A DNA stretch of 39,721 nt from Deltaproteobacteria bacterium (lineage in GTDB: Bacteria; UBA10199; GCA-002796325; 1-14-0-20-49-13), in NCBI GenBank assembly GCA_016180865.1, contig JACPAJ010000013.1, positions 1 to 39,721 on the forward strand. Direction: 5' to 3'. Below are positions 1 to 28,473 of this stretch, one piece after another (position 1 is the first letter of the stretch; each line of letters begins with the position of its first letter). Position numbers and translations under genes: made by a program. The notes beneath the pieces are model-generated. The model worked only from the letters and a program-made list of their open reading frames with translations, was not told the origin of the DNA and did not search any database.

Positions 1-1
1 G

Positions 2-1069
2 TTTGAGATAGAAGAGCTTATAGCCGTGATAGAAAAGCTGACGCGCACGCAGGAAGTAAGAAAAAGGCATAACGCGCTTTTGGAAGATGTATGCGGAACA
101 AACGCAGCGACGCGGTTTTTAGGAAATAGTCCTGCATTTTGCGAGCTTTTAAATACGGCCAGCCGGTTAAGAGGGCATAACGCAAACATATTAATAGAAG
201 GCGAAAGCGGAACCGGCAAAGAGCTTTTGGCAAAATATATACATAGCTTGGAGCGGGACATCCATCGGCCGTTCGTTGCTGTAAATTGCGCCGGAATACC
301 CGATACGCTAATGGAATCGGAGCTGTTTGGGTATGAAAAAGGCGCGTTTACCGGCGCGGTATGCAGAAAGATCGGCAAGTTTGAGTTTGCTAATAACGGA
401 GATATATTTTTAGACGAGATAAGCACGCTTAAGCCTGAACTGCAGGCAAAGCTTCTGCGCGTATTGCAGGAGAGAGAGGTAACTAGGCTAGGCGGAAACA
501 GCGTTATAAGGATAAATTTTAGAGTTATAGCGGCAACCAACCAGAATTTAGAGAAGATGGTGGAAGCCGGCCTGTTCAGGGCCGATTTGTATCATCGTTT
601 GGCGGTTGTTCATTTAAACGTGCCGCCGCTAAGGGAAAGGATCGACGACATACCCTTTTTAGCTAAACATTTTTTGGATAAATATAAGAGAGGGGATAAA
701 GCCAAAGAGATAACGTCTAAGGCGCTGAGCGCATTAAAAGACTATATTTGGCCCGGGAACGTCCGTGAGCTGGAGAATTTAATGCACAGTTTGACTGTTA
801 TGGTGCCGGAGCAGATAATAGACGAAGACGATTTGGCTGAACTGCGTAGCAAGAATCCTTATAGATATAAGACTAAGATGGAAGAAGACGGCAGAATATC
901 GAATTTAGCGCTGGATGAATATGTGGATACGCTGGCGCGTGATTATATAAAGCGGGTTTTAAGGATAAGCAAAGGGAATAAAACTGCCGCGGCAGAAAAG
1001 CTGAAGGTCAGCCGGTCGACGTTTTATAATCGCTGCAAGGAGCTTGGCATACCGCTGGAGAGGGAATAA
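2..1069 (+). CDS. Sigma-54-dependent transcriptional activator (NtrC family; AAA+ plus Fis HTH), 5'-truncated by the window edge
   Basis: Walker A GESGTGKE, ESELFGYEKGAFTGA, FLDEI, WPGNVREL and C-terminal HTH GNKTAAAEKLKVSRSTFY. The frame is open to the window start (FEIEELIAVIEK), which looks like the end of a receiver domain. Confidence 0.95.
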   Translation, partial: FEIEELIAVIEKLTRTQEVRKRHNALLEDVCGTNAATRFLGNSPAFCELLNTASRLRGHNANILIEGESGTGKELLAKYIHSLERDIHRPFVAVNCAGIPDTLMESELFGYEKGAFTGAVCRKIGKFEFANNGDIFLDEISTLKPELQAKLLRVLQEREVTRLGGNSVIRINFRVIAATNQNLEKMVEAGLFRADLYHRLAVVHLNVPPLRERIDDIPFLAKHFLDKYKRGDKAKEITSKALSALKDYIWPGNVRELENLMHSLTVMVPEQIIDEDDLAELRSKNPYRYKTKMEEDGRISNLALDEYVDTLARDYIKRVLRISKGNKTAAAEKLKVSRSTFYNRCKELGIPLERE

Positions 1070-1073
1070 GGCC

Positions 1074-1271
1074 ATGAACGAATACGAAATAGGCATAAAA
1101 AAGCTTTTGCATGACATAAATAGTTCGCTGACGCCGTTAATCGGATTTTTGCGCGAAGTGGAGGCCAAAATAAGCAATAATCCCGATCTCTCCAAATATC
1201 ATGCCCTCGCAAAAAAAAGCGCGGAGAAGATTAAAAAGGCTATTTCGGAAGAAGGGAAGATGAAGAGATGA
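1074..1271 (+). CDS. Small stand-alone HisKA/DHp-like protein (65 aa)
   Basis: ATG at 1074 follows GGAGAGGG. LLHDINSSLTPLIGFL resembles an H-box helix. The stop overlaps the next ATG (ATGA). Confidence 0.6.
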   Translation: MNEYEIGIKKLLHDINSSLTPLIGFLREVEAKISNNPDLSKYHALAKKSAEKIKKAISEEGKMKR

Positions 1272-2014
1272 CACCCGCAGGCGTCAAAATTCTTGGCGTG
1301 TATAATAGCATTGAGATAATGCATATATCCAAGCCGGAGGATTCTCTGCTATCGGATCCTCAATTAAAAAGTAAAATACTTACTGAATGTAGGGAAGTGC
1401 AACTGGAGGTTTGGAATCCCAAAATGTCAATAGAAGAAAATACCATTAAAAATAGTGGATTAACTCTTTTGTCGCACGCCGGTAATTTTATTGGATTTAT
1501 CTCATATCAGGTCTTGCAATGTTCCAATTCACATATTCTATATTTTCATGACTTGATGATAAAAAAATCTTTTCAAAGTTTAGGGCTTTTTCGGACAGCG
1601 TTAATGATGTCTATCGTCTGCGCCTCTCAAGATTATAAGATGGATGAATTTACCGGTATGACGATTACGTACAATGCGAGGGTGATTAAGAGCTTATATT
1701 TCAAGCCGCATATTTTTAAAAATATCTCATTTCCGACGCCATCAAATAAGCACAAGATGCTGTTAAGAGAGCATGGAAGCCATTTTTTTGACCCAAGAGA
1801 ATTAGATATAGAAAACGGAATAGTAAGAAAAATGTGGCTGCAATCCAAGAAAGACGGCCAACATATAAATGATAATAGCGAACTTTCGATATTGACTGGC
1901 ACATATCTGAATCCCGTTGATGGAGACAGCATAGTACTATTATTTGATATTGATGAAAAGTCCATTGAACATATAAATAATTTTTTAAAGGAAAGGGTTG
2001 GTCAAACGCCATGA
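1268..2014 (+). CDS. GNAT-fold acyltransferase-like protein
   Basis: FIGFISY...ILYFHDLMIKKSFQSLGLFR resembles GNAT beta3-beta4 and motif A (Q/RxxGxG). Translationally coupled on both sides. Confidence 0.6.
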   Translation: MTPAGVKILGVYNSIEIMHISKPEDSLLSDPQLKSKILTECREVQLEVWNPKMSIEENTIKNSGLTLLSHAGNFIGFISYQVLQCSNSHILYFHDLMIKKSFQSLGLFRTALMMSIVCASQDYKMDEFTGMTITYNARVIKSLYFKPHIFKNISFPTPSNKHKMLLREHGSHFFDPRELDIENGIVRKMWLQSKKDGQHINDNSELSILTGTYLNPVDGDSIVLLFDIDEKSIEHINNFLKERVGQTP

Positions 2015-3594
2015 AAAGAAATGTAGCCATGTTTGCAGTTGTTATCATGGCGGTAGGTGCTGTGGGCTTTTTATTATGCGGAAGTTATTTTAAGGGAGAT
2101 TCTCTGCCAAAAAATCCAACTATCGGCAATAGTATTTATTATATGCCATTGGAGGATCGCGTTCAAACACTTAACCCGCGTGAAGTGCGGTTCAGATCCG
2201 ATTATCAAATAATGAAAGCTATATATGATCAGTTTATAGGGATTAGTCGTGACGGTTATGTTGCGCCGCGTGTTTGCTATCGCTGGGAAATTTCTGATGA
2301 TTTTAAGCGATACACCTTCTACTTAAAGGATGGTGTGTTTTTTCACGACGGTAAAAAGTTGACATCACGCGATATTCTTTTTTCATTTCATTATGCAGGC
2401 AAAAACCCAACGATATTATATAAACTATTTACCGATATTGATGGCTACGAAGAATATTACAGAGGGAAAGCAGATCATATAAGTGGCATAAAAATCATCG
2501 ACGATTATACAATTCAGATAACACTAAAAGACTCCAAACCAATCTTTTTATATAAGCTTTCCGATCCAAGATTTGTTATTCTACCGGAAAACTTTCATGG
2601 CATCGATGAGGCGGATTTTTTTAAGATGCCGATTGGCGCAGGTCCATATATGCTCAAATTTTGGGATGAAAATAAAATAGTGATTTCAAGATTTGATAAT
2701 TACTATGGGCAAAAAGGGTACATAAAAGAATTTCACATTATCCCTATGGAACGGCAGGATGTAATTAAAACATTTGAAAATGGCAAAATTTTTAATTTAC
2801 CATATTCATTAAATATTAAGACTAGTGAAATAAATAGGACTGATATTGCTTTTCAACGTGCCGATATGATTGGCGTACACATGTTATTTTTTAATAATCA
2901 AAAATATCCATTGACAAATAAATTTGTGCGTTTGGCAATAAGAGCCGCTATAGACAGAGATAGATTAGTCGAAAAATGTTATCCGGAGAATGAAGTTGCT
3001 TCCGGAATAATACCAACTGGACTTGTTGGTTCTGCAAATTCACGTGGCGAATTCTATGATTTGAATAATTCCGTTGAATATTATCTAAACAAAGCAGGAC
3101 TTAAGACTAAGGACTTGCCGCTAATGCATGTGATTCGTTTTAAGGAAACACAAGATAACTGTTTTAAACCCACCATTGAGAAGATGTTTAAGAACGCAAA
3201 GCTCCCGATTACTGTTGAAATTTTGTCATATGAGGATGGCATGAAGCTTTTTTCCGATAATGATTATCATATTTTGTCGGAATGGATAACTGTAAGAAAC
3301 CTTGAACCGCTAAATATAATTCATTTCTTTGATGGCAGATCCACACAAAATCTGGCAAAGATTGATGATATAGATATTAACAAATTGATCGATCTTGCAG
3401 AAGGTGCAAGATCCAGAGCATCGAGAGCGGCAATTTACAAGGAAATTAGCGATCATATCGTCAGAAAAGCATATGTCGTAGACATGGATTATCTTCGCAG
3501 AGATTTCATTTACGATCAGCGTGTTAGGGGGCCTTCAATTCCTGATCCAATAAGTCAATTAGTAGGGTTCAATGAGATATGGTTGGAGGACTGA
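2011..3594 (+). CDS. Family 5 (OppA/DppA-like) solute-binding protein with no cognate permease or ATPase in the window
   Basis: N-terminal hydrophobic anchor, WEISDDFKRYTFYLKDGVFFHDGKKLTSRD, PIGAGPY and VRLAIRAAIDR are SBP_bac_5 signatures. Confidence 0.92.
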   Translation: MKRNVAMFAVVIMAVGAVGFLLCGSYFKGDSLPKNPTIGNSIYYMPLEDRVQTLNPREVRFRSDYQIMKAIYDQFIGISRDGYVAPRVCYRWEISDDFKRYTFYLKDGVFFHDGKKLTSRDILFSFHYAGKNPTILYKLFTDIDGYEEYYRGKADHISGIKIIDDYTIQITLKDSKPIFLYKLSDPRFVILPENFHGIDEADFFKMPIGAGPYMLKFWDENKIVISRFDNYYGQKGYIKEFHIIPMERQDVIKTFENGKIFNLPYSLNIKTSEINRTDIAFQRADMIGVHMLFFNNQKYPLTNKFVRLAIRAAIDRDRLVEKCYPENEVASGIIPTGLVGSANSRGEFYDLNNSVEYYLNKAGLKTKDLPLMHVIRFKETQDNCFKPTIEKMFKNAKLPITVEILSYEDGMKLFSDNDYHILSEWITVRNLEPLNIIHFFDGRSTQNLAKIDDIDINKLIDLAEGARSRASRAAIYKEISDHIVRKAYVVDMDYLRRDFIYDQRVRGPSIPDPISQLVGFNEIWLED

Positions 3595-4847
3595 TGGTGG
3601 ATATCAAAACCCGCATTTATCATAAGTTGGATAATATACCTCAATTAGAGTGGGATTGCCTAGCCAAAGGCTCTTCGATTTTCTACAATTATGGTTGGTT
3701 CAAAACGTTTGAACACGAGTTGTCAAATGAACCTGTTTATATAACAGCATATGCCGGTAAACGCCTGCTAGGTATATTGCCTGCTTTTATAGTGCGCGAT
3801 CCTAATACGTATGTATACCACAATCCACGTGACGTTATATTTTCCGACGATTTTTTGTTGCAAGCGGCCAATTTCGGAAGGGCTCATGTTTTAGTGCGAG
3901 CTTTTAAAAAGCTGAACAAGCGGATACATCCCATTCTTAATAAGATATTTTTCCCGGCATTGGTGTGTGTATCTCCCCTTGGATATGAAAGTGATCTATT
4001 GGTTGATAGAACGGATGTTTATCACAATGATATTGTTGTTCATTTGCTCAATGAAGCAGAACAAGTGGCTCAATCGCATAGAATACGAAGTGTAATGTTT
4101 TTGTGGGCACACAATACAAATACTATGCTTACAAAAAAACTGTATGAACACAAATATCTGGGTTCATATGGAAAACCAACATTTATAATGCCGGTAAAAT
4201 GGAGTTCGTTTGATGGCTATTTGTCAGATTTTAATTCCAACAGAAAATACTCCATTAATAAAGAAATAAAACACTTTGCCAAAACTGGCATTAGCCTTGA
4301 ATGTTGCCATAATCAAGAAATGAGTGCCAGCTTAGATAAGGTTGCGGCCCTCGTTAAAGAGCTTATGCAGAGACATGGGTATGAAATTTCCTTTGATAAA
4401 CAATTTAATAGAATAAAGGATTTATATCACAATTTGCCAAATGAGACGGTTACTTACCTCGCTAAAATAGATAATAAAATAATAGGTTACCTTCTTTCTT
4501 TTGTCAAAAATGGAATCTGTTATCCTAAATTACTTGGCTTTGATAATAACTTCACATCAGGAACATTTACGTATTTTAATATATTTTTTTATAACCTAAT
4601 CAAATCTGTAATAGAAACCGGTAAAATAAAACAAATTTACTATGGTTTTGCTTCTGAAGAGGCAAAATTTAAAAGAGGTTGTCAATCTTATAATGCCTAC
4701 AATTACTATAAGTTAATGAATTCCACTTGGCATTGCCTACTTGATAAATTTCTTAAACATTACAATAAAGCTAGAAAAAACTATTATAAGTCAAAATATG
4801 GGCATCTGGTTTTAGAAAAAGAAAATAGCTTTTTGAACAGCGAATAA
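3594..4847 (+). CDS. FemAB/BioF2-like double-GNAT acyl- or aminoacyltransferase
   Basis: W...FYNYGWFKTFE, WSSFDGYLSDFNSNRKYSINKE, LGFD, YFNIFFY and EAKFKRG match the FemAB-like/Acetyltransf_6 pattern. GGAGGA precedes ATG 3594, which overlaps the upstream stop. Confidence 0.8.
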   Translation: MVDIKTRIYHKLDNIPQLEWDCLAKGSSIFYNYGWFKTFEHELSNEPVYITAYAGKRLLGILPAFIVRDPNTYVYHNPRDVIFSDDFLLQAANFGRAHVLVRAFKKLNKRIHPILNKIFFPALVCVSPLGYESDLLVDRTDVYHNDIVVHLLNEAEQVAQSHRIRSVMFLWAHNTNTMLTKKLYEHKYLGSYGKPTFIMPVKWSSFDGYLSDFNSNRKYSINKEIKHFAKTGISLECCHNQEMSASLDKVAALVKELMQRHGYEISFDKQFNRIKDLYHNLPNETVTYLAKIDNKIIGYLLSFVKNGICYPKLLGFDNNFTSGTFTYFNIFFYNLIKSVIETGKIKQIYYGFASEEAKFKRGCQSYNAYNYYKLMNSTWHCLLDKFLKHYNKARKNYYKSKYGHLVLEKENSFLNSE

Positions 4848-4854
4848 AAAATAT

Positions 4855-7611
4855 ATGGCAAAGAAAAAAATGCTTTTGCATGTGATTTTATCGAATGAGC
4901 TGAAATACTTTGTAATAGTTTTTATGGCGTCCACAGCACTTATTTTGCTGGCAATTTCCGATTCCATTAATAAATATGGTAAAGCTTCAAATGAAGCCAC
5001 TATCAAGCAGACAACCGCCGCAATTTTGACATATTTACAGGAAGGCAATTATTACTCTTTAAAACATAACCTTGATCAGTTAACCTCCTCAGAGGTTCTA
5101 AAAAATGCAGTAGTGTTCGATCACCACGGCAAAAAATTTAGTGAAAGCGGAACTAATACAACCACTTTAGGAAAAATCAAAATTGATCAATCGTTGCCTC
5201 AAAAGCCAAACGAACTCAGTTATCAAAAAATCGGCACGCGTGAAATTATAGTTGCACATATTTATGATTCTGAGGGTGTTTTATGGGGTATCTTGGCTGT
5301 GGAAGCCAATAACGCTTTATCGTACTATCTTTTGAAAAATGTCTCTATAATTTTACTGATAAGCGCTGTCTTGCTGCTATTTTTGCATACTATGGTGAGT
5401 TATAAAGTAGTTTCTAAAGCGATTATGCCTTTGCGATTATTGACAAATGAGGTTGATAGCATCTCTACAAGTATACAGAATACCAGTAAAAATGGTTTTC
5501 ATCTTGATAGCAATATGATGACATACATTGAATCTCTATCTTTGAAGCTTAATCAGTTTACTGATGAAAAAGAGGAAATTCAAATTTTGATGTTTTCTTT
5601 CCGCAAATTATTGGAGGTCTTGATTACTTATTGGAGGCTTACCATTCAAAATAAATCCCTTGCCTCCATCGGCTCCTCTACGGCGATGGTGGCGCACGAT
5701 GTAAGAAAGCCTTTGACGAGCATGAAGGCGCTGCTGACGAGCTTGCCTGCGATAAAGGATAATCCGGCGGAACTGAAGAAGATGATATCGGTTGTGGACG
5801 GGAGCATAGTTCATACAAACGCCATGCTGAACGAGATACTGGATTTTTCGCGGGATTCTACGGCTTTGGAATTAAATGAGCACGATCCCGTAGGAGTGAT
5901 AACATCTGCTTTAAGCGATGTGCTTAGGAATCATCCTGGGAGCGATGTTAGAATAGAATATGATTTAAAGCACGCGCACGTGCTGCATGTGGACGGCAAT
6001 CGCATAATCAGAGTGCTTACGAATATAATAGACAACGCTCTAAGCGCGATGACGAACGGAGATGGCAAAGCGGTTGGGAGATTGCGGGTGAGGACGGAAG
6101 AGAAATCAGCAATCAATGCCCCCTCACCCTATCCCTCTCCCTCGAGGGGAGAGGGGAAGGGAGAGGGTGATAATATCATACGGATTATCATCTCCGATTC
6201 CGGACCCGGAATACCTGAAGACGCTTTGCCAAGGCTATTCGATCCATTTTTCACATTTGGGAAGAAGGGCGGCACGGGCTTAGGGCTAGCAATCTGCAAG
6301 AAAGTAATAGATATGCACGGGGGGAAGATAGAGGCGAGGAATGCATGTCATCCTTCAACGACCTGTCATCCCCGTGAAAACGGGGATCCAGAGTGTATGC
6401 ATGAGATTCCTGCTTTCGCAGGAATGACAGAGCACGGCGCTGAATTCATCATCGAGCTTCCGGCCGGCGAAAAAACCGCCGCAATAAACGAGTCAGAGCT
6501 GATAAATGATTCCAGCGAGCTAAAGGCATTTCGCGAAGAGGAGGCTCTGCGGGAGGATAGCGGGGGCGACATAGCCAACACGGCGGAGTTTATGCGAATA
6601 AATAAGGAGCGCGGGCGGTTATCCCGCATGCTGATAGTAGATGACGAGCCTTTGTTCAGAGAAACGATACGATATATGCTCAACGGTTTAGATCAGGTAA
6701 AAGACCATATAAGAGTAGTTGAAGTCGATAGCGCTGAGAAAGGGCTGGAGATGCTGGCTGGAGCAGGAGATCCTTCGGCCGCGCCTCAGGATGACAGGCC
6801 AATTTTTGACTACGTTATAGCCGACATAGATTTAGGCAAGCGGAAGATGAACGGATATGATTTTACGCAGGAGATATTAAAGAAATATCCAAATACATAC
6901 GTGCTGATACATTCAAATAAGCGGAAAGAGGAGCTGGATATAGAGATTCGCGTCATTGCGAGCGCAGCGAAGCAATCTCCCGAACCGAGTTGTATGCGGG
7001 AGATTGCTTCGTCGTCCCTCGATGGCCTCGGGACTCCTCGCAATGACATACAGCCCCGCTTCCTTGGCTTTCTCCCCAAGCCGATGAAGGCATCTGAGTT
7101 ATTGCAGTTTTTGGCTTGCAGGAGCTTTGAGATGGCGCAGCCACATGGCGGTGTCATTGCGAGCCGAGCACTCAATCCTTTGAGTGCTTCGGCGTGGCAA
7201 TCTCCCGAACACAATTGTATGCACGGGATTGCTTCGTCGCCTCCGGCTCCTCGCAATGACAAGAAGAATGTTCTTCTATTGAATGACGATGAAGGATTGA
7301 ATTTCAGCATAGGGATGACGTTGAAATCGCAGAATATGCATGTGACGGATGTAACGAGCGTTAAAGACGCGCTTCAAAAGTTAGCAAAGAACAAGTTTGA
7401 CATGATTATATCCGATATAAACTTGGGCGAAGGTCAGCCGAACGGATATGATTTTTTGAAAGAGGTGCGTAAAACCGAAAGCAGCGTTCCCTTTATCTTC
7501 GCATCCGGCTACAGCAAGGCCGAAGAATGGCCCAAAGCCTCCGCTGCAGGCGCAACCGCTTATCTTCAGCTCCCGATTGACCTAAAAGAAATGGTGGAAG
7601 TTTTTAGTTAA
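4855..7611 (+). CDS. Membrane hybrid sensor histidine kinase (2 TM, HisKA, HATPase, two receiver domains) with in-frame palindromic insertions
   Basis: H-box AHDVRKP, N-box NIIDNA, DSGPGI, FDPFFT, GTGLGL. REC1 LIVDDE...DIDLG...PKP; REC2 LLNDD...DINLG. Confidence 0.93.
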   Translation: MAKKKMLLHVILSNELKYFVIVFMASTALILLAISDSINKYGKASNEATIKQTTAAILTYLQEGNYYSLKHNLDQLTSSEVLKNAVVFDHHGKKFSESGTNTTTLGKIKIDQSLPQKPNELSYQKIGTREIIVAHIYDSEGVLWGILAVEANNALSYYLLKNVSIILLISAVLLLFLHTMVSYKVVSKAIMPLRLLTNEVDSISTSIQNTSKNGFHLDSNMMTYIESLSLKLNQFTDEKEEIQILMFSFRKLLEVLITYWRLTIQNKSLASIGSSTAMVAHDVRKPLTSMKALLTSLPAIKDNPAELKKMISVVDGSIVHTNAMLNEILDFSRDSTALELNEHDPVGVITSALSDVLRNHPGSDVRIEYDLKHAHVLHVDGNRIIRVLTNIIDNALSAMTNGDGKAVGRLRVRTEEKSAINAPSPYPSPSRGEGKGEGDNIIRIIISDSGPGIPEDALPRLFDPFFTFGKKGGTGLGLAICKKVIDMHGGKIEARNACHPSTTCHPRENGDPECMHEIPAFAGMTEHGAEFIIELPAGEKTAAINESELINDSSELKAFREEEALREDSGGDIANTAEFMRINKERGRLSRMLIVDDEPLFRETIRYMLNGLDQVKDHIRVVEVDSAEKGLEMLAGAGDPSAAPQDDRPIFDYVIADIDLGKRKMNGYDFTQEILKKYPNTYVLIHSNKRKEELDIEIRVIASAAKQSPEPSCMREIASSSLDGLGTPRNDIQPRFLGFLPKPMKASELLQFLACRSFEMAQPHGGVIASRALNPLSASAWQSPEHNCMHGIASSPPAPRNDKKNVLLLNDDEGLNFSIGMTLKSQNMHVTDVTSVKDALQKLAKNKFDMIISDINLGEGQPNGYDFLKEVRKTESSVPFIFASGYSKAEEWPKASAAGATAYLQLPIDLKEMVEVFS
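6118..6170. repeat. Palindromic REP/RPE-like element 1 (CCCTCTCCC/GGGAGAGGG type), in frame in the kinase
   Basis: CCCTCTCCC 6133-6141 pairs with GGGAGAGGG 6147-6155. TCACCCT 6124-6130 pairs with AGGGTGA 6164-6170. Encodes APSPYPSPSRGEGKGEG. Confidence 0.85.
6363..6430. repeat. Palindromic REP/RPE-like element 2 (GTCATCCCCG...GGAATGAC type)
   Basis: Terminal inverted repeat CTGTCAT/ATGACAG with internal hairpins ATCCCCG-TGAAAA-CGGGGAT and ATTCCTGC-TTTC-GCAGGAAT. A partial TGTCATCC copy precedes it at 6346. Encodes CHPRENGDPECMHEIPAFAGMT. Confidence 0.9.
6767..6796. repeat. Half palindromic element 3 (GAGATCCTTCG...CTCAGGATGAC type)
   Basis: GAGATCCTTCGGCCGCGCCTCAGGATGACA encodes the insert GDPSAAPQDDR in REC1 and ends in the same ATGAC terminus as the other elements. 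Confidence 0.7.
6952..7047. repeat. Palindromic element 4 (GTCATTGCGAG...CTCGCAATGAC type)
   Basis: 11-bp terminal inverted repeat 6952-6962/7037-7047. Perfect 15-bp inner inverted repeat CGAAGCAATCTCCCG 6968-6982 / CGGGAGATTGCTTCG 6997-7011. Confidence 0.92.
7152..7261. repeat. Palindromic element 5 (same family as element 4) with a nested extra hairpin
   Basis: TGTCATTGCGAG 7152-7163 pairs with CTCGCAATGACA 7250-7261. Nested hairpin GCCGAGCACTCAA-TCCT-TTGAGTGCTTCGGC at 7163-7193. Confidence 0.92.
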
Positions 7612-7739
7612 GACGTGTGGTGAGGATACCCCATTTTTATGGGTTTTCTGCGACGCTCACGATAGTCGGATAAACACACAGACAACTAACCGAAATTCCA
7701 CAATAATTATAAAAAAAGAACTTATCATTTTTAAGTTGA

Positions 7740-7756
7740 TTGGCACGTTTTATGCT
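7740..7756 (+). promoter_or_regulatory. Sigma-54 (-24/-12) promoter
   Basis: TTGGCACGTTTTATGCT has GG at 7742-43 and GC at 7754-55 with exact 10-nt spacing (consensus TGGCACG-N4-TTGC). It follows an AT-rich tract, and a sigma-54 activator is in the same locus. Confidence 0.85.
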
Positions 7757-7770
7757 TTGTTATTGGTTTC

Positions 7771-8607
7771 ATGAAAGAGGCATTTAAAACAATTGATAGA
7801 ATAGCGCACGATATGGCCTCATCCATCATGGCGATCCGTTTCTTTCTTAATAAGTTATTGAATTTCGATCCAACAGCTAAACTTGAAGAGTTGAGAGACA
7901 GCTTAAGAGAGTCTTTGAGAAATATAAAAGATGATGCAAAACTCAATTCAATTATCAGAGAAATCTCGGAAAGCATGCGCTCAGAAATTCAATTTATAGA
8001 AAAAGCGGCCGCATCGATACAAAAGGCGGACGATGAAACTATAGAAAGGCTCTGTGCCGCAAAACGATCGATAGATAAGATTAAGGCAATGGCCGACAAT
8101 CTTAAGAAAGCCGGCGAATGCAAAGAGGCGTTAAGCTGCCAAACATCCGTCGCCAGAATCATTAAAGGAACAATTGAGGAGCTTCGGCCGGTATTGGGCG
8201 AAAAAAATATTTCGCTCGATTTTATTTATAATGCCGAGGTGATTGTAAATATTGATGAATCAACTATTAACCGCGTTATCAGCAATATGATAGTAAATGC
8301 GTCCGAAGCCATGAGTGAAGGAGATATAGCCGTTCATCTTCATACGCACGAAGATGTGATAAGAATAGAAGTTGTAGATAACGGAAAAGGAATTCTGGAC
8401 AGGATTGCCCCGAAGATATTCAAACAGGGTTTTACATTCGGCAAAAAAGACGGAACCGGAACCGGCCTTGCATTTTGCGAAGAGGCTGTAAATTCACATG
8501 GAGGCCGATTAGCGGTTCATAGCAGATCAAAACAGGGATCTATTTTTGCCGTAAGCCTGCCCGCCAAAAGAGAAACGCCCACGCTGGATGAAGATTCGGT
8601 TGAATAA
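7771..8607 (+). CDS. Cytoplasmic histidine kinase with no sensor domain (HisKA-HATPase)
   Basis: IAHDMASS H-box at residue 13, NMIVNASEA, DNGKGI, GFTFGKKDGTGTGLA. Confidence 0.88.
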   Translation: MKEAFKTIDRIAHDMASSIMAIRFFLNKLLNFDPTAKLEELRDSLRESLRNIKDDAKLNSIIREISESMRSEIQFIEKAAASIQKADDETIERLCAAKRSIDKIKAMADNLKKAGECKEALSCQTSVARIIKGTIEELRPVLGEKNISLDFIYNAEVIVNIDESTINRVISNMIVNASEAMSEGDIAVHLHTHEDVIRIEVVDNGKGILDRIAPKIFKQGFTFGKKDGTGTGLAFCEEAVNSHGGRLAVHSRSKQGSIFAVSLPAKRETPTLDEDSVE

Positions 8608-8676
8608 CCGCCCATTATTTTTTTGACAAAGCCGCCGTTATTAAGCTAAGCTTCTTCTCAGAAAGGATAAAAATAT

Positions 8677-9159
8677 ATGAAAATAAAAATTATTTTGCTG
8701 TCTGTTTTTCTTGCGTTGCCGGGTCTTGCCAAAGCGGAATTAATAAAAGGCGATATTTTAGCAGGCGTCGGGGCGGGATTCACAATTCACGGCGGAGCGT
8801 TTGACGGCCAGGCGGCGGGGGAATATTATTACAAAAATAACATTTCTTTTTTGATGAATTTTGACACTTTTGCGAATTCCTCCGGCGCTGTATTTAATTT
8901 TCAGCCTGCCGCCAGATATCATTTTAATATAAAAGAAGCGCCCAAATTAACGCCGTTTTTGGGGATTGGACTCGGGGCTTTTGTTAATAACCACGGAAAC
9001 GGGGGTTTAAGCATTGCCGCTCCTGATTTTGGCCTCGATTATAACGTCGCGAGAAATGTCTACCTTTATTCAAATATTGATTTTTTGCATCTCACTGATT
9101 TCGACGGCTATGAATGGACGTTTAAATGGACTGTTGCCGGCGTGAAATTTAAATTTTAA
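8677..9159 (+). CDS. Small outer-membrane beta-barrel protein
   Basis: Signal peptide ending AKA, alternating aromatic/Gly strands, C-terminal AGVKFKF BAM-type signal, AAGGA RBS. Confidence 0.82.
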   Translation: MKIKIILLSVFLALPGLAKAELIKGDILAGVGAGFTIHGGAFDGQAAGEYYYKNNISFLMNFDTFANSSGAVFNFQPAARYHFNIKEAPKLTPFLGIGLGAFVNNHGNGGLSIAAPDFGLDYNVARNVYLYSNIDFLHLTDFDGYEWTFKWTVAGVKFKF

Positions 9160-9165
9160 CTCGGC

Positions 9166-10326
9166 ATGAAAAAATGTCTGCCATTTCTTTTAGTTCTGCT
9201 CTTGGCATCGTGTGCCGGCTCAAAAAAGACGGAAGATTCCAAGCTTAACTGGCTTATGTCGTGGGATGAGGCGGCTTCCGTTGCGACAAAGGAAAGCAGG
9301 CAGATGATTGCGGAGTTCTCCACCGAATGGTGCCCTTACTGCAAATTTATCGATGAAAAAATCTTTACCGATGGAGAAGTGGGCGATAAATTATCCAAAT
9401 TTGTTCTGCTTAGACTTGACGGCGATAAGGCTTCAAGCCAAACCTACATGGACAAATTCGATGTAAAGGGATTTCCCACCTTCATTATATTTGATGAAAA
9501 AGGGGCTGAACTAAAAAGGTTCAACGATTTGAATGACAAAGGAGATCTGCTGGCGATTTTGGAAAATACAGCTTCCGACGAAACAAAACTATCCGAAAAC
9601 ATAGATTCTATAGAAATTGCTAAATTGCTTATTTCCAAATTTCCGCACTCTCCATTTTTGCCGGTTTATTATAAAAAACTCGCCGATTTCTATGCCTCGG
9701 CGACCGTAAAAAACAGTTATCTGAAGGCTGCAAAAGGCATAATTGAAACAGCGCTAAATCATTTTTCAACTCTGGATTTAAGGACTCAAAGAATCGCTGC
9801 CGATCAATATGTAGATCTTCTGGCTGAAATTTTAAAAGAGCTGGAAGAATATCAGGGCATAAAGGGCGTTTATTCAAAAGGAGCCGCATTATCAAAAGAG
9901 ATCGTCCAGAAAAACGGCGGCATTGAAAATAACCGTTACCTGATAGGAAATATAGTTTATTATTATTTAAAAGTAGGCGAGCTGAAACACGCAAAAGATT
10001 TTTTAATCGCTGCGGAAAAAGCCAATCCTTCATATTGGCCGGTTTATTCCAATTTTGCGAAAGTCTATAAAGCGCTCGGTGAAACGGACGAAGCTGTCAA
10101 ATACTGCAAAAAAGGATACGAGCTTGCCGAAGAAGTTGCCAGACCCAGAATAGCGTTGATTTGGGCGGAAGTTCTTGCAGACGCAAAAAAATATAAAGAA
10201 GCGGTCGATGTATTGAAATCGGCGGAAGACGATCTTATCAAGACCGGCTCGTCCGATAAAGGCCGCGCAAAAAAATTATCAGAGCAGCTTAAGAAAAGCA
10301 GAATTGAAATGGAATCCTTCCTCTAA
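9166..10326 (+). CDS. Lipoprotein with thioredoxin-fold (WCPYC) domain and TPR repeats
   Basis: Lipobox LASC, FSTEWCPYCK, cis-Pro motif VKGFPT, helical TPR-like C-terminus. Confidence 0.88.
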   Translation: MKKCLPFLLVLLLASCAGSKKTEDSKLNWLMSWDEAASVATKESRQMIAEFSTEWCPYCKFIDEKIFTDGEVGDKLSKFVLLRLDGDKASSQTYMDKFDVKGFPTFIIFDEKGAELKRFNDLNDKGDLLAILENTASDETKLSENIDSIEIAKLLISKFPHSPFLPVYYKKLADFYASATVKNSYLKAAKGIIETALNHFSTLDLRTQRIAADQYVDLLAEILKELEEYQGIKGVYSKGAALSKEIVQKNGGIENNRYLIGNIVYYYLKVGELKHAKDFLIAAEKANPSYWPVYSNFAKVYKALGETDEAVKYCKKGYELAEEVARPRIALIWAEVLADAKKYKEAVDVLKSAEDDLIKTGSSDKGRAKKLSEQLKKSRIEMESFL

Positions 10327-25550: not shown

Positions 25551-26336
25551 ATGTCCGTAATTTTAAAAGCTCTCAAAAGCCAGGAGAGAGAATCAAATAA
25601 TATCAGCAAGTCGCCGTTAATTATTCCAGAAGGCGAAGGTTTTTTTAAAGGCAGGCAGTCGATGGTTAAAAAAGATCCTTACGTCTCCAAAAAAAGGATT
25701 TATGTTTTAAGCGTTCTTTTTGCCGCTGCGGTTATTTTTGCAGTTGCTCTTCAGTGGGTGAAAAACAGGCCGGCCGAGCCTGAGTCTGCAAAACAACCGG
25801 CTGTTGCTCATGCGGTTGAAAATTCAAATCAAACCGCACTGGCTGTTCAAGCGGAAACAAGCGAGGCTGTTCCGGCAGACATAGTTGAACGGGCAAATGC
25901 AGCTTTTGCCGGCGGAGATTATGAAACCGCAGTGAAATTGTTTAAGGAAGCAATCGCGAAAGATCAAAACAATGCAATGCTTCATAATAATTTAGGGCTT
26001 ATATTTGTAAAAAAAGAGCTCTATTCCAGCGCGGAAGATGAGTATAAAAAAGCGCTTGAATCTGACGATAAGTGCGCGGAATGTTTTAATAATTTTGGAT
26101 ATCTGAAATCGATATTGGGAGAATCGTTTGAGGCGAGGAAATATTTTGAAAAGGCATCGGTGTTATTAGCATCGTACGCAGATCCGTATTTTAACCTGGC
26201 GGTCTTATCCGAAAAAGAAGGGGACATAGGCAATGCCGTTAAATATTACAGGCAGTTCATCGAGCTCTATCCGAATAAAAGCGATACGCTCTATTCTAAA
26301 GTCAACAAACGGGTAATTGAACTTGCCGGGAAATAG
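25551..26336 (+). CDS. Membrane-anchored TPR protein (ExeB/MshN-like)
   Basis: MSVILKALK N-terminus typical of ExeB/MshN, a TM segment and TPR motifs (HNNLG, FNNFG, YFNLA). Confidence 0.85.
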   Translation: MSVILKALKSQERESNNISKSPLIIPEGEGFFKGRQSMVKKDPYVSKKRIYVLSVLFAAAVIFAVALQWVKNRPAEPESAKQPAVAHAVENSNQTALAVQAETSEAVPADIVERANAAFAGGDYETAVKLFKEAIAKDQNNAMLHNNLGLIFVKKELYSSAEDEYKKALESDDKCAECFNNFGYLKSILGESFEARKYFEKASVLLASYADPYFNLAVLSEKEGDIGNAVKYYRQFIELYPNKSDTLYSKVNKRVIELAGK

Positions 26337-26338
26337 TT

Positions 26339-27346
26339 ATGGCTAAGATTTCATTAGGGGTCGACATAGGCTCTGAAGATATAAAAGTAGTATGCCTGGA
26401 AAAAAATGAAGAAAGTTATAAGCTGAATTCTTACGGCCATTTCAGGTTCGGCGGCGACGAAGAGGCTTTAAAAAGATTTGTGCAGGAAGCAAAGCTTCCG
26501 AAGGGCGATGTAAGAATAAATATTGAAGACAGCTCTTTAAAAATAAGAAGGCTTGATCTGCCGACCATGACCGAAGAGGAATTTAATGAGGCCGTTCGCT
26601 GGGGGATGAAGGATATTGTTGAAGGGGATATTAACGATTTTATCTTTCGCTGTTCAAAAATAGATCCGACGGATCTGAGCCTTGAAAATAAAATTCCGAT
26701 GCTGGTTTTTGCAATCAAGGCCGATACGGTGTCTGGCAGGCGCAGTTTTGCTAAGCGCATAGGCTTTAAAATCCCAAGCATTATAGAACCCAATGCAGGT
26801 GCTCTGGCATGTCTTTTTGATGCGCTGAAGGGAAAAGAAAGAGACTCTTCAAAAGCGGTTGTTGATTTAGGGAGGGTCTTTTCGCCTTTTATCGTTATCG
26901 GGAAAAAAGGGCTGGTTTTTTCCAGGCCGATGAACGGCTGCAGCGAAATTAATTTTATCGGCCAGCTTGCGCGGGACTTAGGCATAGGCTCAAAAGAGGC
27001 GGAAGATTTAAAGCAAAAATTTTTTGGAGGAGGAAAAATAAGCGGAGAAATTGAGACAAGGCTTAAAAATTCCGTGACGCAGTTTTATTCAAAAATGGCC
27101 GTTGAAATTCAGCGGTCTATTGACGGGTATAATCTTGTTTTCGGCAGGCAGAAAGTCGATGAAATTTTTCTTTGCGGAAACGGCGCGTACAGCAAAGGGC
27201 TGATTGGTTATCTTAATCAGACTCTTGGCGTTAAAACGGGCATATTGGATCCGTTCGAATTTGCCGATACGCGAGAATTCAGCCCTGGGCCGTTTGACGG
27301 CAAACGGGCTCTTTTTGCGGTTGCTTGCGGGCTTGCGGTTGATTGA
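26339..27346 (+). CDS. pilM: Type IV pilus assembly protein PilM
   Basis: LGVDIGSEDIKVV, VVDLG, EIQRSIDGY, IFLCGNGA, AVACGLA. Confidence 0.92.
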   Translation: MAKISLGVDIGSEDIKVVCLEKNEESYKLNSYGHFRFGGDEEALKRFVQEAKLPKGDVRINIEDSSLKIRRLDLPTMTEEEFNEAVRWGMKDIVEGDINDFIFRCSKIDPTDLSLENKIPMLVFAIKADTVSGRRSFAKRIGFKIPSIIEPNAGALACLFDALKGKERDSSKAVVDLGRVFSPFIVIGKKGLVFSRPMNGCSEINFIGQLARDLGIGSKEAEDLKQKFFGGGKISGEIETRLKNSVTQFYSKMAVEIQRSIDGYNLVFGRQKVDEIFLCGNGAYSKGLIGYLNQTLGVKTGILDPFEFADTREFSPGPFDGKRALFAVACGLAVD

Positions 27347-27361
27347 TTCGGCGCAAATTTT

Positions 27362-27898
27362 ATGCATATTAACTTTGAAACAAAGAGAAATGTGTTTGAA
27401 ATGATTCTGTTGAAGGGGCTTGAAGTTAATAGGCTGCTGATGGTTTTTTTCGTTATCGGTGTAATTATGCTGATGGTTTTATTCGGCCTGGTTCAAAAAT
27501 TCCGCCTCGATTATCTTGGGGCAAAAAGAATAAAAATGGAACATCAGGTGATAGAATTGCGCAAAGGAACGCCCCTTGAAAATCTTTCGATAGCAAGCAG
27601 CGCAGGCAAGGATCAGATATTTATAAATTATGAAGAAAAAATCATCTGGTCGGATATTCTTAAAGAACTTTCGGTTTACTGCCCTGAAAATGTGCAAGTT
27701 ACGCAGTTTAAAAGTACTAGTTCCGGCCGGACAGTTAACATAGGCGGCGACGCGCCGGATCAGGCGAGCGTTGCCGATTTTGTAAAAGCCCTTCAGGGAA
27801 GCGGAACTTTTAAGGACGTTAAACTTTTGTCCTCAACATCCGTTCAGGCTGAGGGCGGGAGCACGAGGATCGTTTACAGCATTGCAAGCACAATATGA
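27362..27898 (+). CDS. pilN: PilN-family protein
   Basis: HINF motif, TM, WSDILKELS...PENVQV, FVKALQGSGTFKDVKL; lies after pilM. Confidence 0.82.
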   Translation: MHINFETKRNVFEMILLKGLEVNRLLMVFFVIGVIMLMVLFGLVQKFRLDYLGAKRIKMEHQVIELRKGTPLENLSIASSAGKDQIFINYEEKIIWSDILKELSVYCPENVQVTQFKSTSSGRTVNIGGDAPDQASVADFVKALQGSGTFKDVKLLSSTSVQAEGGSTRIVYSIASTI

Positions 27899-28473
27899 AC
27901 ATTCATCTATCAAGCGTTGACTGGCAGCAGCGCCCCAACAGGCGCGAAAAAATCATATTTGCCTGTTCCGTTCTCATATTTTTTGCGGTTTTTTTAAAAT
28001 CATGCTGGTATCCGAGCAACAAAGCCATTGGGGTTGCAAAATCGGAATTGAAAGGCATTATCGAAGAAAAAATAGCCTTGGAAAGAAACGCCGGGTTGTT
28101 GCAGGACACAGATGCGAAAGGCAAGCTCTGGACGGGAACCCCCGATGAAAGGGTCGCCTATATTAAAATGGCCCAGAGAGTAAGCGAATCGCCGAATGTT
28201 GTTCTGATGAAAGAATTTTCCAACCCTGCGCTTTTGCGGGATGTGAAACTGTCAAACATAGATTTTCCGGACCAAAAAAATGAAAGCGGAATGATAAAGC
28301 AGCAGTGGAAAATCAATGTCAACGGAGCGTTTGTATCGGTAGGTAAATATATTGAGAGATTAGAAGGCTTGCCAATGCTTTTATTTATTGATAATATAAC
28401 GTTCAATTCGGCAAACGATCCGTTTGGGCGCGTTAATGCCGAGGTTGAAGGAACCGTTTATGGCTGGAAATAA
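27895..28473 (+). CDS. pilO: PilO/GspM/MshJ-like protein
   Basis: RREK plus TM, coiled coil, INVNGAF...YIERLEGLP; gene order pilM-N-O. Confidence 0.75.
   Translation: MNIHLSSVDWQQRPNRREKIIFACSVLIFFAVFLKSCWYPSNKAIGVAKSELKGIIEEKIALERNAGLLQDTDAKGKLWTGTPDERVAYIKMAQRVSESPNVVLMKEFSNPALLRDVKLSNIDFPDQKNESGMIKQQWKINVNGAFVSVGKYIERLEGLPMLLFIDNITFNSANDPFGRVNAEVEGTVYGWK

Follow-up and report, generated by a model that had tools for sequence, protein, structure and literature searches.

In the comQXPA and agr systems, variability is confined to the genes that make the signal and to the sensor half of the kinase; the transmitter core and the regulator are conserved. ComQXPA pherotype diversity is on record (PMC4408185, PMC4008528), and Alm et al. 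2006 (PMC1630713) describe how histidine kinases arise by core duplication with new sensor domains and by domain shuffling. A review section on kinases stimulated by binding proteins places the genes of these proteins with signalling rather than transporter genes, and its listed pairs include LuxP-LuxQ, TorT-TorS, AioX-AioS and the family-5 pair CBP-ChiS (PMC8050422). Here we analyse a kinase locus at the start of a 39,721-nucleotide stretch of bacterial DNA (the window), which is contig C129 of a 1.77-Mb metagenome-assembled genome (153 contigs, 84% complete) and is present in groundwater metagenomes. Our comparisons give good support to the view that an AT-rich input cassette is swapped as a module on a fixed core. 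We further propose, tentatively and at slightly under an even chance, that the locus is a sigma-54 phosphorelay in which a fixed output frame is combined with a replaceable AT-rich input cassette whose enzymes make the sensed ligand. Observed directly are a break in base composition, the folds of the parts, the absence of neighbouring transporters, and the occurrence of the same frame with cassettes that are unrelated to one another and meet it where the DHp domain begins. The locus is made up as follows.

2-1069, plus strand: frame; sigma-54-dependent activator (AAA+, Fis-type helix-turn-helix (HTH)); Pfam Sigma54_activat 4.8e-65, AAA_lid_14 and HTH_8.
1074-1271, plus strand: frame; putative stand-alone DHp (HisKA-like) protein of 65 amino acids with an H-box-like motif; from the translation and homologs.
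1268-2014, plus strand: cassette gene 1; GNAT-fold acyltransferase of 248 amino acids; AlphaFold model and structure match.
2011-3594, plus strand: family-5 (Opp/Dpp-type) binding protein of 527 amino acids with an N-terminal hydrophobic signal or anchor; SBP_bac_5 9.2e-55; guanine-plus-cytosine (GC) content 0.359.
3579-4847, plus strand: FemAB-like tandem-GNAT protein of 422 amino acids; Pfam FemAB_like, 76.1 bits (cut-off 27); GC 0.339.
4855-5571, plus strand: variable sensor part of the kinase, comprising a first transmembrane segment, a periplasmic domain of about 125 amino acids, a second transmembrane segment and a linker; from the translation; GC 0.344, GC at third codon positions (GC3) 0.343.
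5572-7611, plus strand: transmitter core of the hybrid kinase, comprising a DHp domain with His281, a catalytic domain and two receivers; Pfam HisKA, HATPase_c and two Response_reg.

A sequence-only reading of this DNA had described four genes as AT-richer than their flanks, with a composition switch inside the kinase just before the H-box, and measurement bears out both statements. The GC content of bases 1268-5660 is 34.9%, against a genome mean of 45.2% (standard deviation 2.0, 4,393-base windows), and 0 of 5,656 windows across the whole genome are as low. A maximum-likelihood two-change-point fit over bases 1-8000 places the borders at 1360 and 5660, dividing the DNA into segments of GC 0.451, 0.347 and 0.472. 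The phospho-accepting His of the kinase, residue 281 (base 5695), follows about 12 codons after the switch at 5660, which coincides with a break in homology described below; the hand counts given by that reading (13/60, 17/60 and 31/60 G+C) are exact. Gene by gene, GC is 0.456 in the activator, 0.359 in the GNAT gene and 0.488 in the kinase core, the last lifted from 0.472 by four in-frame GC-rich repeats, which slightly overstate the contrast with the cassette. GC3 stands at 0.50 for the activator, falls to 0.31-0.37 across the four parts of the cassette and returns to 0.535 for the kinase core, and because the drop is strongest at third codon positions, amino-acid content alone is not enough to account for it. 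Contigs from other sequencing runs reach across both cassette borders and differ there little or not at all:

X2 record 2: 679-2934.
X4 record 17: 559-1776.
X3 record 14: 5143-5841.

Because contigs of other runs bridge both borders, the AT-rich block is not an assembly chimera. A search for repeats at the cassette borders returned only short matches at chance level, and the listed holders of the window stretch include no RNA runs.

Low GC3 throughout would also be expected under relaxed selection with AT-biased mutation, and the GNAT has few homologs, as would suit AT-rich genes that have no functional link to the kinase and are simply fast-drifting or newly acquired neighbours, low in GC from weak selection. 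The four genes are, however, tightly coupled: they overlap at 1268/1271, 2011/2014 and 3579/3594, and only 7 bases separate them at 4847/4855; their frames are long and intact, and the GNAT model reaches a predicted local distance difference test score (pLDDT) of 90. Moreover, another genus retains the GNAT and the binding protein with 51-55% identity, a FemAB-like gene occurs with family-5 binding proteins in another family, and the layout recurs in 8 of 12 related loci. We regard a mere chance neighbourhood as very improbable.

Elsewhere in the same genome, contig C41 carries a paralogous locus in the order activator, 44-amino-acid open reading frame (ORF), GNAT, Amidohydro_3, Peripla_BP_6, hybrid kinase and DHp ORF. 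The window activator is 52% identical to its full-length paralog there, which has the architecture receiver (REC)-AAA-HTH, and the kinase core is 51% identical to the C41 core from residue 240 to the end; upstream of residue 240 there is no similarity. A metagenome scan with a kinase-core alignment yielded 74 loci, and we compared cassettes across 12 related loci with upstream sequence, the window and C41 included. The kinase core is 48-53% identical to those of the metagenomic relatives L024-L031. That the same activator and kinase-core frame would be found with differing sets of enzyme, binding protein and sensor had been anticipated from the window alone, and this is what the C41 paralog and the metagenomic relatives display (locus: binding protein; other cassette genes):

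Window locus: family-5 binding protein; GNAT and FemAB-like protein.
C41: Peripla_BP_6; GNAT and amidohydrolase.
L024: family-5 binding protein; GNAT.
L026/L051: family-5 binding protein; alpha/beta hydrolase.
L053: family-5 binding protein; unannotated 134-amino-acid ORF.
L030: Peripla_BP_6; radical SAM protein, GNAT and methyltransferase.
L031: family-1 binding protein; aldolase.
L032: family-1 binding protein; none seen, the contig beginning inside the binding-protein gene.
L027 and L029: no binding protein; methyltransferase and a protein of 185-189 amino acids of unknown function.
L047: no binding protein; Ham1-like protein, GNAT, Ser/Thr kinase and GAF sensor.
G013: no binding protein; dCache sensor.

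A binding protein of family 5, family 1 or the Peripla_BP_6 type is thus present in 8/12 loci and a GNAT in 5/12. The composition signature is shared: the sensor part is lower in GC than the core by at least 0.07 in eight of nine close loci, and change points fall at the start of the DHp domain in L030 and L024 as well. Binding-protein type and sensor type are inherited together, both between C41 and L030 (binding proteins 46% identical, sensors 38%) and between the window and G086, a genome of another family whose locus also has a FemAB-like gene and family-5 binding proteins (FemAB-like proteins 44% identical, binding proteins 26-27%, sensors 23-25%).

The joins themselves are visible in closely related DNA. 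L029 and L031 begin to match 13 codons before the kinase His and have 83-84% DNA identity from there on; upstream of that point nothing is alike. Within one metagenome, L047 (4651-4847) and L029 (2381-2577) are 98% identical over 197 bases beginning 11 codons before the His, yet their upstream cassettes are unrelated; the L047 contig ends 197 bases after the join, and the two may be alleles or paralogs. L053 and L027 are 90% identical over 212 bases at the same position. Several contigs stop near the join, as they would with a core that is present more than once in a genome or population. In a tree of cores, most of which is unresolved (10/13 inner branches open), the two cores of this genome pair (support 92/87) despite their differing cassettes.

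Given that the variable region of the kinase ends between sensor and transmitter, as expected of pherotype loci, the sequence-only reading had compared the cassette to a pherotype module, which would vary within a species. We found no sign of such variation. The same cassette is present in four groundwater runs that come from two studies, and neither joints nor loose ends are listed at its borders, in a comparison that uses contigs, which hide rare variants, at a low depth of about 4-6. The sister genus G001 has the same rare GNAT (55% identical to the window) and binding protein (51%) on contig C130 (locus L104), and a kinase core on another contig that is 54% identical to that of the window. 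With cassette proteins at 55% and 51% and the core at 54%, divergence from G001 is even across the locus, which was the pattern named beforehand as speaking against exchange of this kind. Strain-level pherotype polymorphism is not supported.

The frame has what would be the parts of a phosphorelay: a kinase with two receivers, a DHp ORF that is itself below the Pfam cut-off and has homologs above it, and an activator whose receiver is present in the C41 paralog only, the 5' end of the window gene, receiver domain included, being cut by the contig start. HisKA scores 17.9 bits on the 65-amino-acid ORF, under the 26.9-bit cut-off; it scores 32.6 bits on the homolog directly after the L024 activator (42% identical) and 44.6 bits on the 90-amino-acid ORF after the C41 kinase. 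On these matches, we propose that the small ORF is a stand-alone DHp phosphotransfer protein of the conserved frame that would hand phosphate from the hybrid kinase to the activator.

The cassette enzymes have the GNAT-type folds that had been predicted for both. No Pfam or NCBIfam entry matches the 248-amino-acid protein, whose family is very rare (20 matches at E<=1e-3 among 1.84 billion representative proteins). Its AlphaFold model (pLDDT 90.3) matches GCN5 with a Z score of 14.5 and a root-mean-square deviation of 2.5 over 159 residues; Foldseek gives a probability of 1.00 for GNAT, and motif A is partial (Q-x-x-G). The 422-amino-acid protein (model pLDDT 76.7) has as its best Foldseek match Weissella FemX (E 5e-10, template-modelling (TM) score 0.53/0.65), followed by the soluble domain of MprF, FemA, the tRNA-dependent peptide synthases Sbb17/Sba18 and a tandem GNAT from the clavulanic acid pathway. 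It is probably an aminoacyl-tRNA-dependent aminoacyl transferase, as predicted from this fold. A sequence search of the PDB returned no solved relatives of the FemAB-like protein beyond chance, and in the literature we found no published function for the PF04339/DUF482/FemAB-like family. Word-based homolog searches returned only two proteins each for the GNAT and the FemAB-like protein, and a scan of the genome collection with a FemAB-like alignment returned the G086 contig only. Within the phylum, 5/93 genomes have the FemAB-like gene and 2/93 have a member of the rare GNAT family.

The Pfam family concerned is one of peptidoglycan biosynthesis and recognition, FemX is the top structure match, and the structural neighbours of the GNAT acetylate proteins and peptides; the enzymes might accordingly act on peptidoglycan precursors or proteins, with the binding protein sensing released wall peptides in a feedback loop on the cell wall, much as MppA binds murein tripeptide. 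The review tabulates MppA as a family-5 binding protein for a murein peptide (PMC8050422). Genes found in only 5/93 and 2/93 genomes are too rare for a core wall function, however, and cassettes with Peripla_BP_6, family-1 or GAF components are off the wall theme, so we give envelope or protein modification only a slim chance. GNATs also serve as self-protection enzymes, as in the tabtoxin and phosphinothricin systems, and the locus could be a small cluster for a secreted peptide-like antimetabolite in which the GNAT protects the producer and the binding protein and kinase regulate production by an outside cue. The match of the FemX-like fold to Sbb17/Sba18 (an antibiotic pathway) and to the clavulanic-acid-pathway tandem GNAT would suit this, as would the G001 locus, where an ATP-grasp L-amino-acid ligase related to BacD, the bacilysin synthetase, adjoins the GNAT. 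Against it, the cluster is very small, it has no exporter, warhead-synthesis or immunity-transporter genes, and the inheritance of binding protein and sensor together with the enzymes is better explained if the ligand is related to the product. This account seems to us quite unlikely.

The G001 ligase is encoded on the minus strand at C130 1003-2319, between the GNAT and the binding protein, and its nearest solved relatives are BL00235 and BacD. The GNAT, the FemX-like protein and this ligase are bond-forming enzymes and look biosynthetic. In G001:C130 the GNAT gene is preceded, at a distance of about 80 bases, by the sigma-54-type site TGGCATGCGCATTGCT.

The binding protein, too, is placed as had been supposed, without a neighbouring permease or ATPase: the gene order is binding protein, FemAB-like protein, kinase, and transporter genes beside the binding protein are absent. 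A genome scan found BPD_transp_1 permeases only on contigs C112, C149 and C44, and the only Opp-type permeases found are a pair on C112 that has its own binding protein. Likewise, no LivHM-type permease was found in this genome (84% complete) despite two Peripla_BP_6 genes, the second of which lies at G000:C74:13174-14331 on the minus strand. The signal of the binding protein and the two hydrophobic stretches of the kinase were read from the translations by eye. From these features, we propose that the binding protein is an exported co-sensor for the kinase, and the cassette binding proteins generally are probably exported and not serving transport. An Atlas match of the kinase sensor domain to an sCache/CHASE8-like fold (TM score about 0.6) is a lead only, and a complex prediction of the binding protein (residues 30-527) with the kinase periplasmic domain (36-160) scored 0.02, which gives no verdict either way.

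Taken together, these parts suggest the following course of events. The GNAT and the FemX-like enzyme would build a small N-acylated aminoacyl or peptide-like compound, which would leave the cell and be bound by the binding protein in the periplasm. By analogy with CBP-ChiS, LuxP-LuxQ and AioX-AioS, the loaded binding protein would then dock on the periplasmic domain of the kinase. As the domain content implies, phosphate would pass from His to Asp within the kinase, on to the DHp protein and from there to the activator, which would fire sigma-54 promoters, for which there are candidate sites. That the cassette enzymes make the sensed ligand is plausible but unproven. Sigma-54 sites with 0-1 mismatch stand directly upstream of operons in C41, L030, G001:C130 and L027, a position that may reflect self-regulation and would favour this course of events, and that suits substrate induction equally well. 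Across the whole genome, on both strands, the background of such sites with at most one mismatch is 0.049 per kb.

Several findings weigh against a relay with an exchangeable, self-supplied input. Exchange at the window's own locus is old, given core identities of only 51-58%. In the window we identified no gene for a product, an exporter or a precursor, and bases 1268-4855 contain no small ORF or free intergenic space, so there is no room for a pre-peptide gene. Among the matches listed, the nearest solved structures of the 248-amino-acid enzyme are GCN5, the Nat family and RimI, and LuxI and FeeM do not appear there. The GNATs of C41 and L030 have no detectable likeness to each other. In G001 the contig breaks off within the gene for the binding protein, at the very place after which a FemAB-like gene would be expected, and the ligase may be an addition to the FemAB-like protein rather than a replacement for it. 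The Opp-type pair on C112 could conceivably share the binding protein for uptake. Finally, several sister cassettes look catabolic or have no binding protein (L036, L031, L026/L051, L047 and G013); L036, of the same kinase family, has a CN_hydrolase with an NCS1 permease.

Hydrolytic or catabolic cassettes of this kind (L036 with its importer, L031, L026/L051 and the amidohydrolase of C41) are what one would expect if the loci sense outside nutrients or peptides, for instance from prey or cell walls, the cassette enzymes modify, detoxify or use the compound after its entry into the cell, and the cassettes represent substrate specificities. In the tables of the review section, moreover, all binding-protein/kinase pairs except LuxPQ sense nutrients or ions (PMC8050422). 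Yet the window cassette contains no importer gene, its GNAT and FemX-like enzymes, like the G001 ligase, form bonds rather than degrade, and the radical SAM protein, GNAT and methyltransferase of L030 are no catabolic set. We consider the sensing of an outside compound unlikely.

The Peripla_BP_6 cassettes of C41 and L030 each open with a small ORF, at 8061-8195 in C41 (L011) and 4908-5069 in L030, encoding 44 or 53 amino acids. Both follow a strong ribosome-binding site, start rich in lysine, contain a hydrophobic stretch and carry Cys-Lys at the C-terminal end (ICKH or LCKGN), and their alignment is weak and of low complexity. In L030 the small ORF is followed by the radical SAM gene, whose product has a Cys-rich SPASM-type C-terminus, read by eye from the translation with no tool match; the layout recalls exported signal pre-peptides. 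An AmiC-like cytoplasmic amide sensor was considered for the C41 binding protein and ruled out, as the protein has a signal sequence.

A wider possibility, which we hold to be doubtful, is that this groundwater phylum with an outer membrane uses plug-in self-signalling circuits, each AT-rich cassette encoding the making of a small peptide-like signal of its own together with a matching binding protein and sensor. Some signals would then be products of non-ribosomal synthesis, through a GNAT plus a FemX-like enzyme or an L-amino-acid ligase, and others would derive from tiny exported peptides on which a radical SAM enzyme acts. Every cassette would be attached at one and the same position to a shared output of hybrid kinase, DHp protein and sigma-54 activator, and private signal channels would arise by exchange.

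Downstream of the kinase, two further features bear on the output of the relay.

7741-7756, plus strand: sigma-54 promoter-like site TGGCACGTTTTATGCT, with one mismatch to TGGCAC-N5-TTGCW, 15 bases before the next gene; consensus scan.
7771-8607, plus strand: 278-amino-acid HATPase_c-only protein, the first gene behind the sigma-54 site; Pfam HATPase_c 3.3e-20.

By its match to the consensus, the site at 7741 is a candidate output promoter. Behind it stands a three-gene group encoding the HATPase_c protein, a 160-amino-acid protein of unknown function (8677-9159) and a thioredoxin-TPR protein (9166-10326), and the genes from 7771 to 10326 are a possible target operon of the relay. In four other genera of the family, the activator matches all at about 54-55% and in multiple copies; for the thioredoxin-TPR neighbour no match was found. 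The genome has 87 sigma-54-type sites with at most one mismatch in 1.77 Mb, and it and its relatives have many NtrC-type activators; sigma-54 control seems to be used extensively in this lineage.

The kinase core is further marked by four GC-rich palindromic repeats (no strand assigned), which leave its reading frame intact and are missing from the paralog and other relatives.

6114-6174: GC-rich palindromic repeat, in frame, in the ATP-binding domain; 16 further genome copies, not in the paralog.
6359-6431: second in-frame repeat; 19 further genome copies.
6952-7048: third in-frame repeat, in the region of the first receiver; 7 further copies, with 4/4 aligned relatives lacking it.
7151-7262: fourth in-frame repeat, between the two receivers; 9 further copies, with very high summed contig depth in other runs.

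Loose ends in other runs accumulate at the repeat at 6114-6174. Palindromic elements occur inside Rickettsia genes, and the four repeats of the kinase core resemble them. As to composition elsewhere in the genome, the paralogous locus on C41 is also among its AT-richest stretches; after C129 and C41 come C93 (about 25600-28200), C144 (about 4600-6800) and C76 (about 26600).

How does the locus stand beside the described systems? CBP-ChiS of Vibrio cholerae is like it in that, as the review section describes it, a family-5 protein encoded with signalling genes controls a hybrid kinase through the kinase's periplasmic domain (PMC8050422). CBP, for its part, works with a transporter as well, and its ligands are chitin sugars. 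ChiS is itself a DNA-binding protein, whereas the output of the window locus is a separate sigma-54 activator that would be reached through the DHp protein, and nothing in the ChiS operon compares with the pair of GNAT and FemX-like protein. The LuxPQ relay ends at a sigma-54 activator, LuxO. LuxP-LuxQ of Vibrio harveyi, in the same section, likewise pairs a transporter-independent binding protein with a hybrid kinase, a self-made signal and phosphotransfer (PMC8050422). It differs in that LuxP belongs to Peripla_BP_4, the LuxQ sensor is a tandem PAS-like domain, and LuxS is not GNAT-like and is encoded elsewhere. We know of no cassette exchange for LuxP-LuxQ. AioR is sigma-54-dependent. In AioX-AioS-AioR, the section describes a binding protein that plays no part in transport, a kinase whose periplasmic domain is sCache-like and a two-component regulator (PMC8050422), an arrangement that the proposed parts of the window locus resemble. 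In contrast to what we propose for the window locus, its ligand is inorganic and comes from outside, no ligand enzymes are co-encoded, and the kinase is not a hybrid.

The comQXPA and agr systems, for their part, are allelic variants within one species with a ribosomal pre-peptide; the window locus has no pre-peptide gene, and our comparisons, unlike those of comQXPA and agr alleles, are between paralogs or different organisms. Compared with the domain shuffling described by Alm et al. 2006 (PMC1630713), what is swapped at these loci is an entire input block of several genes, enzymes and binding protein as well as sensor, and base composition breaks sharply at the DHp border. In the open-access literature we found no description of the exchange of multi-gene cassettes (enzymes, binding protein and sensor) on a common core. 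If the enzymes make the sensed ligand, the locus would represent new peptide-like signalling chemistry in outer-membrane bacteria, and if the proposal as a whole is true it would amount to a natural plug-and-play sensor design. Binding-protein-dependent kinases and sensor shuffling are known; what is new is that whole input blocks are swapped before one core, at joins that are up to 98% identical.

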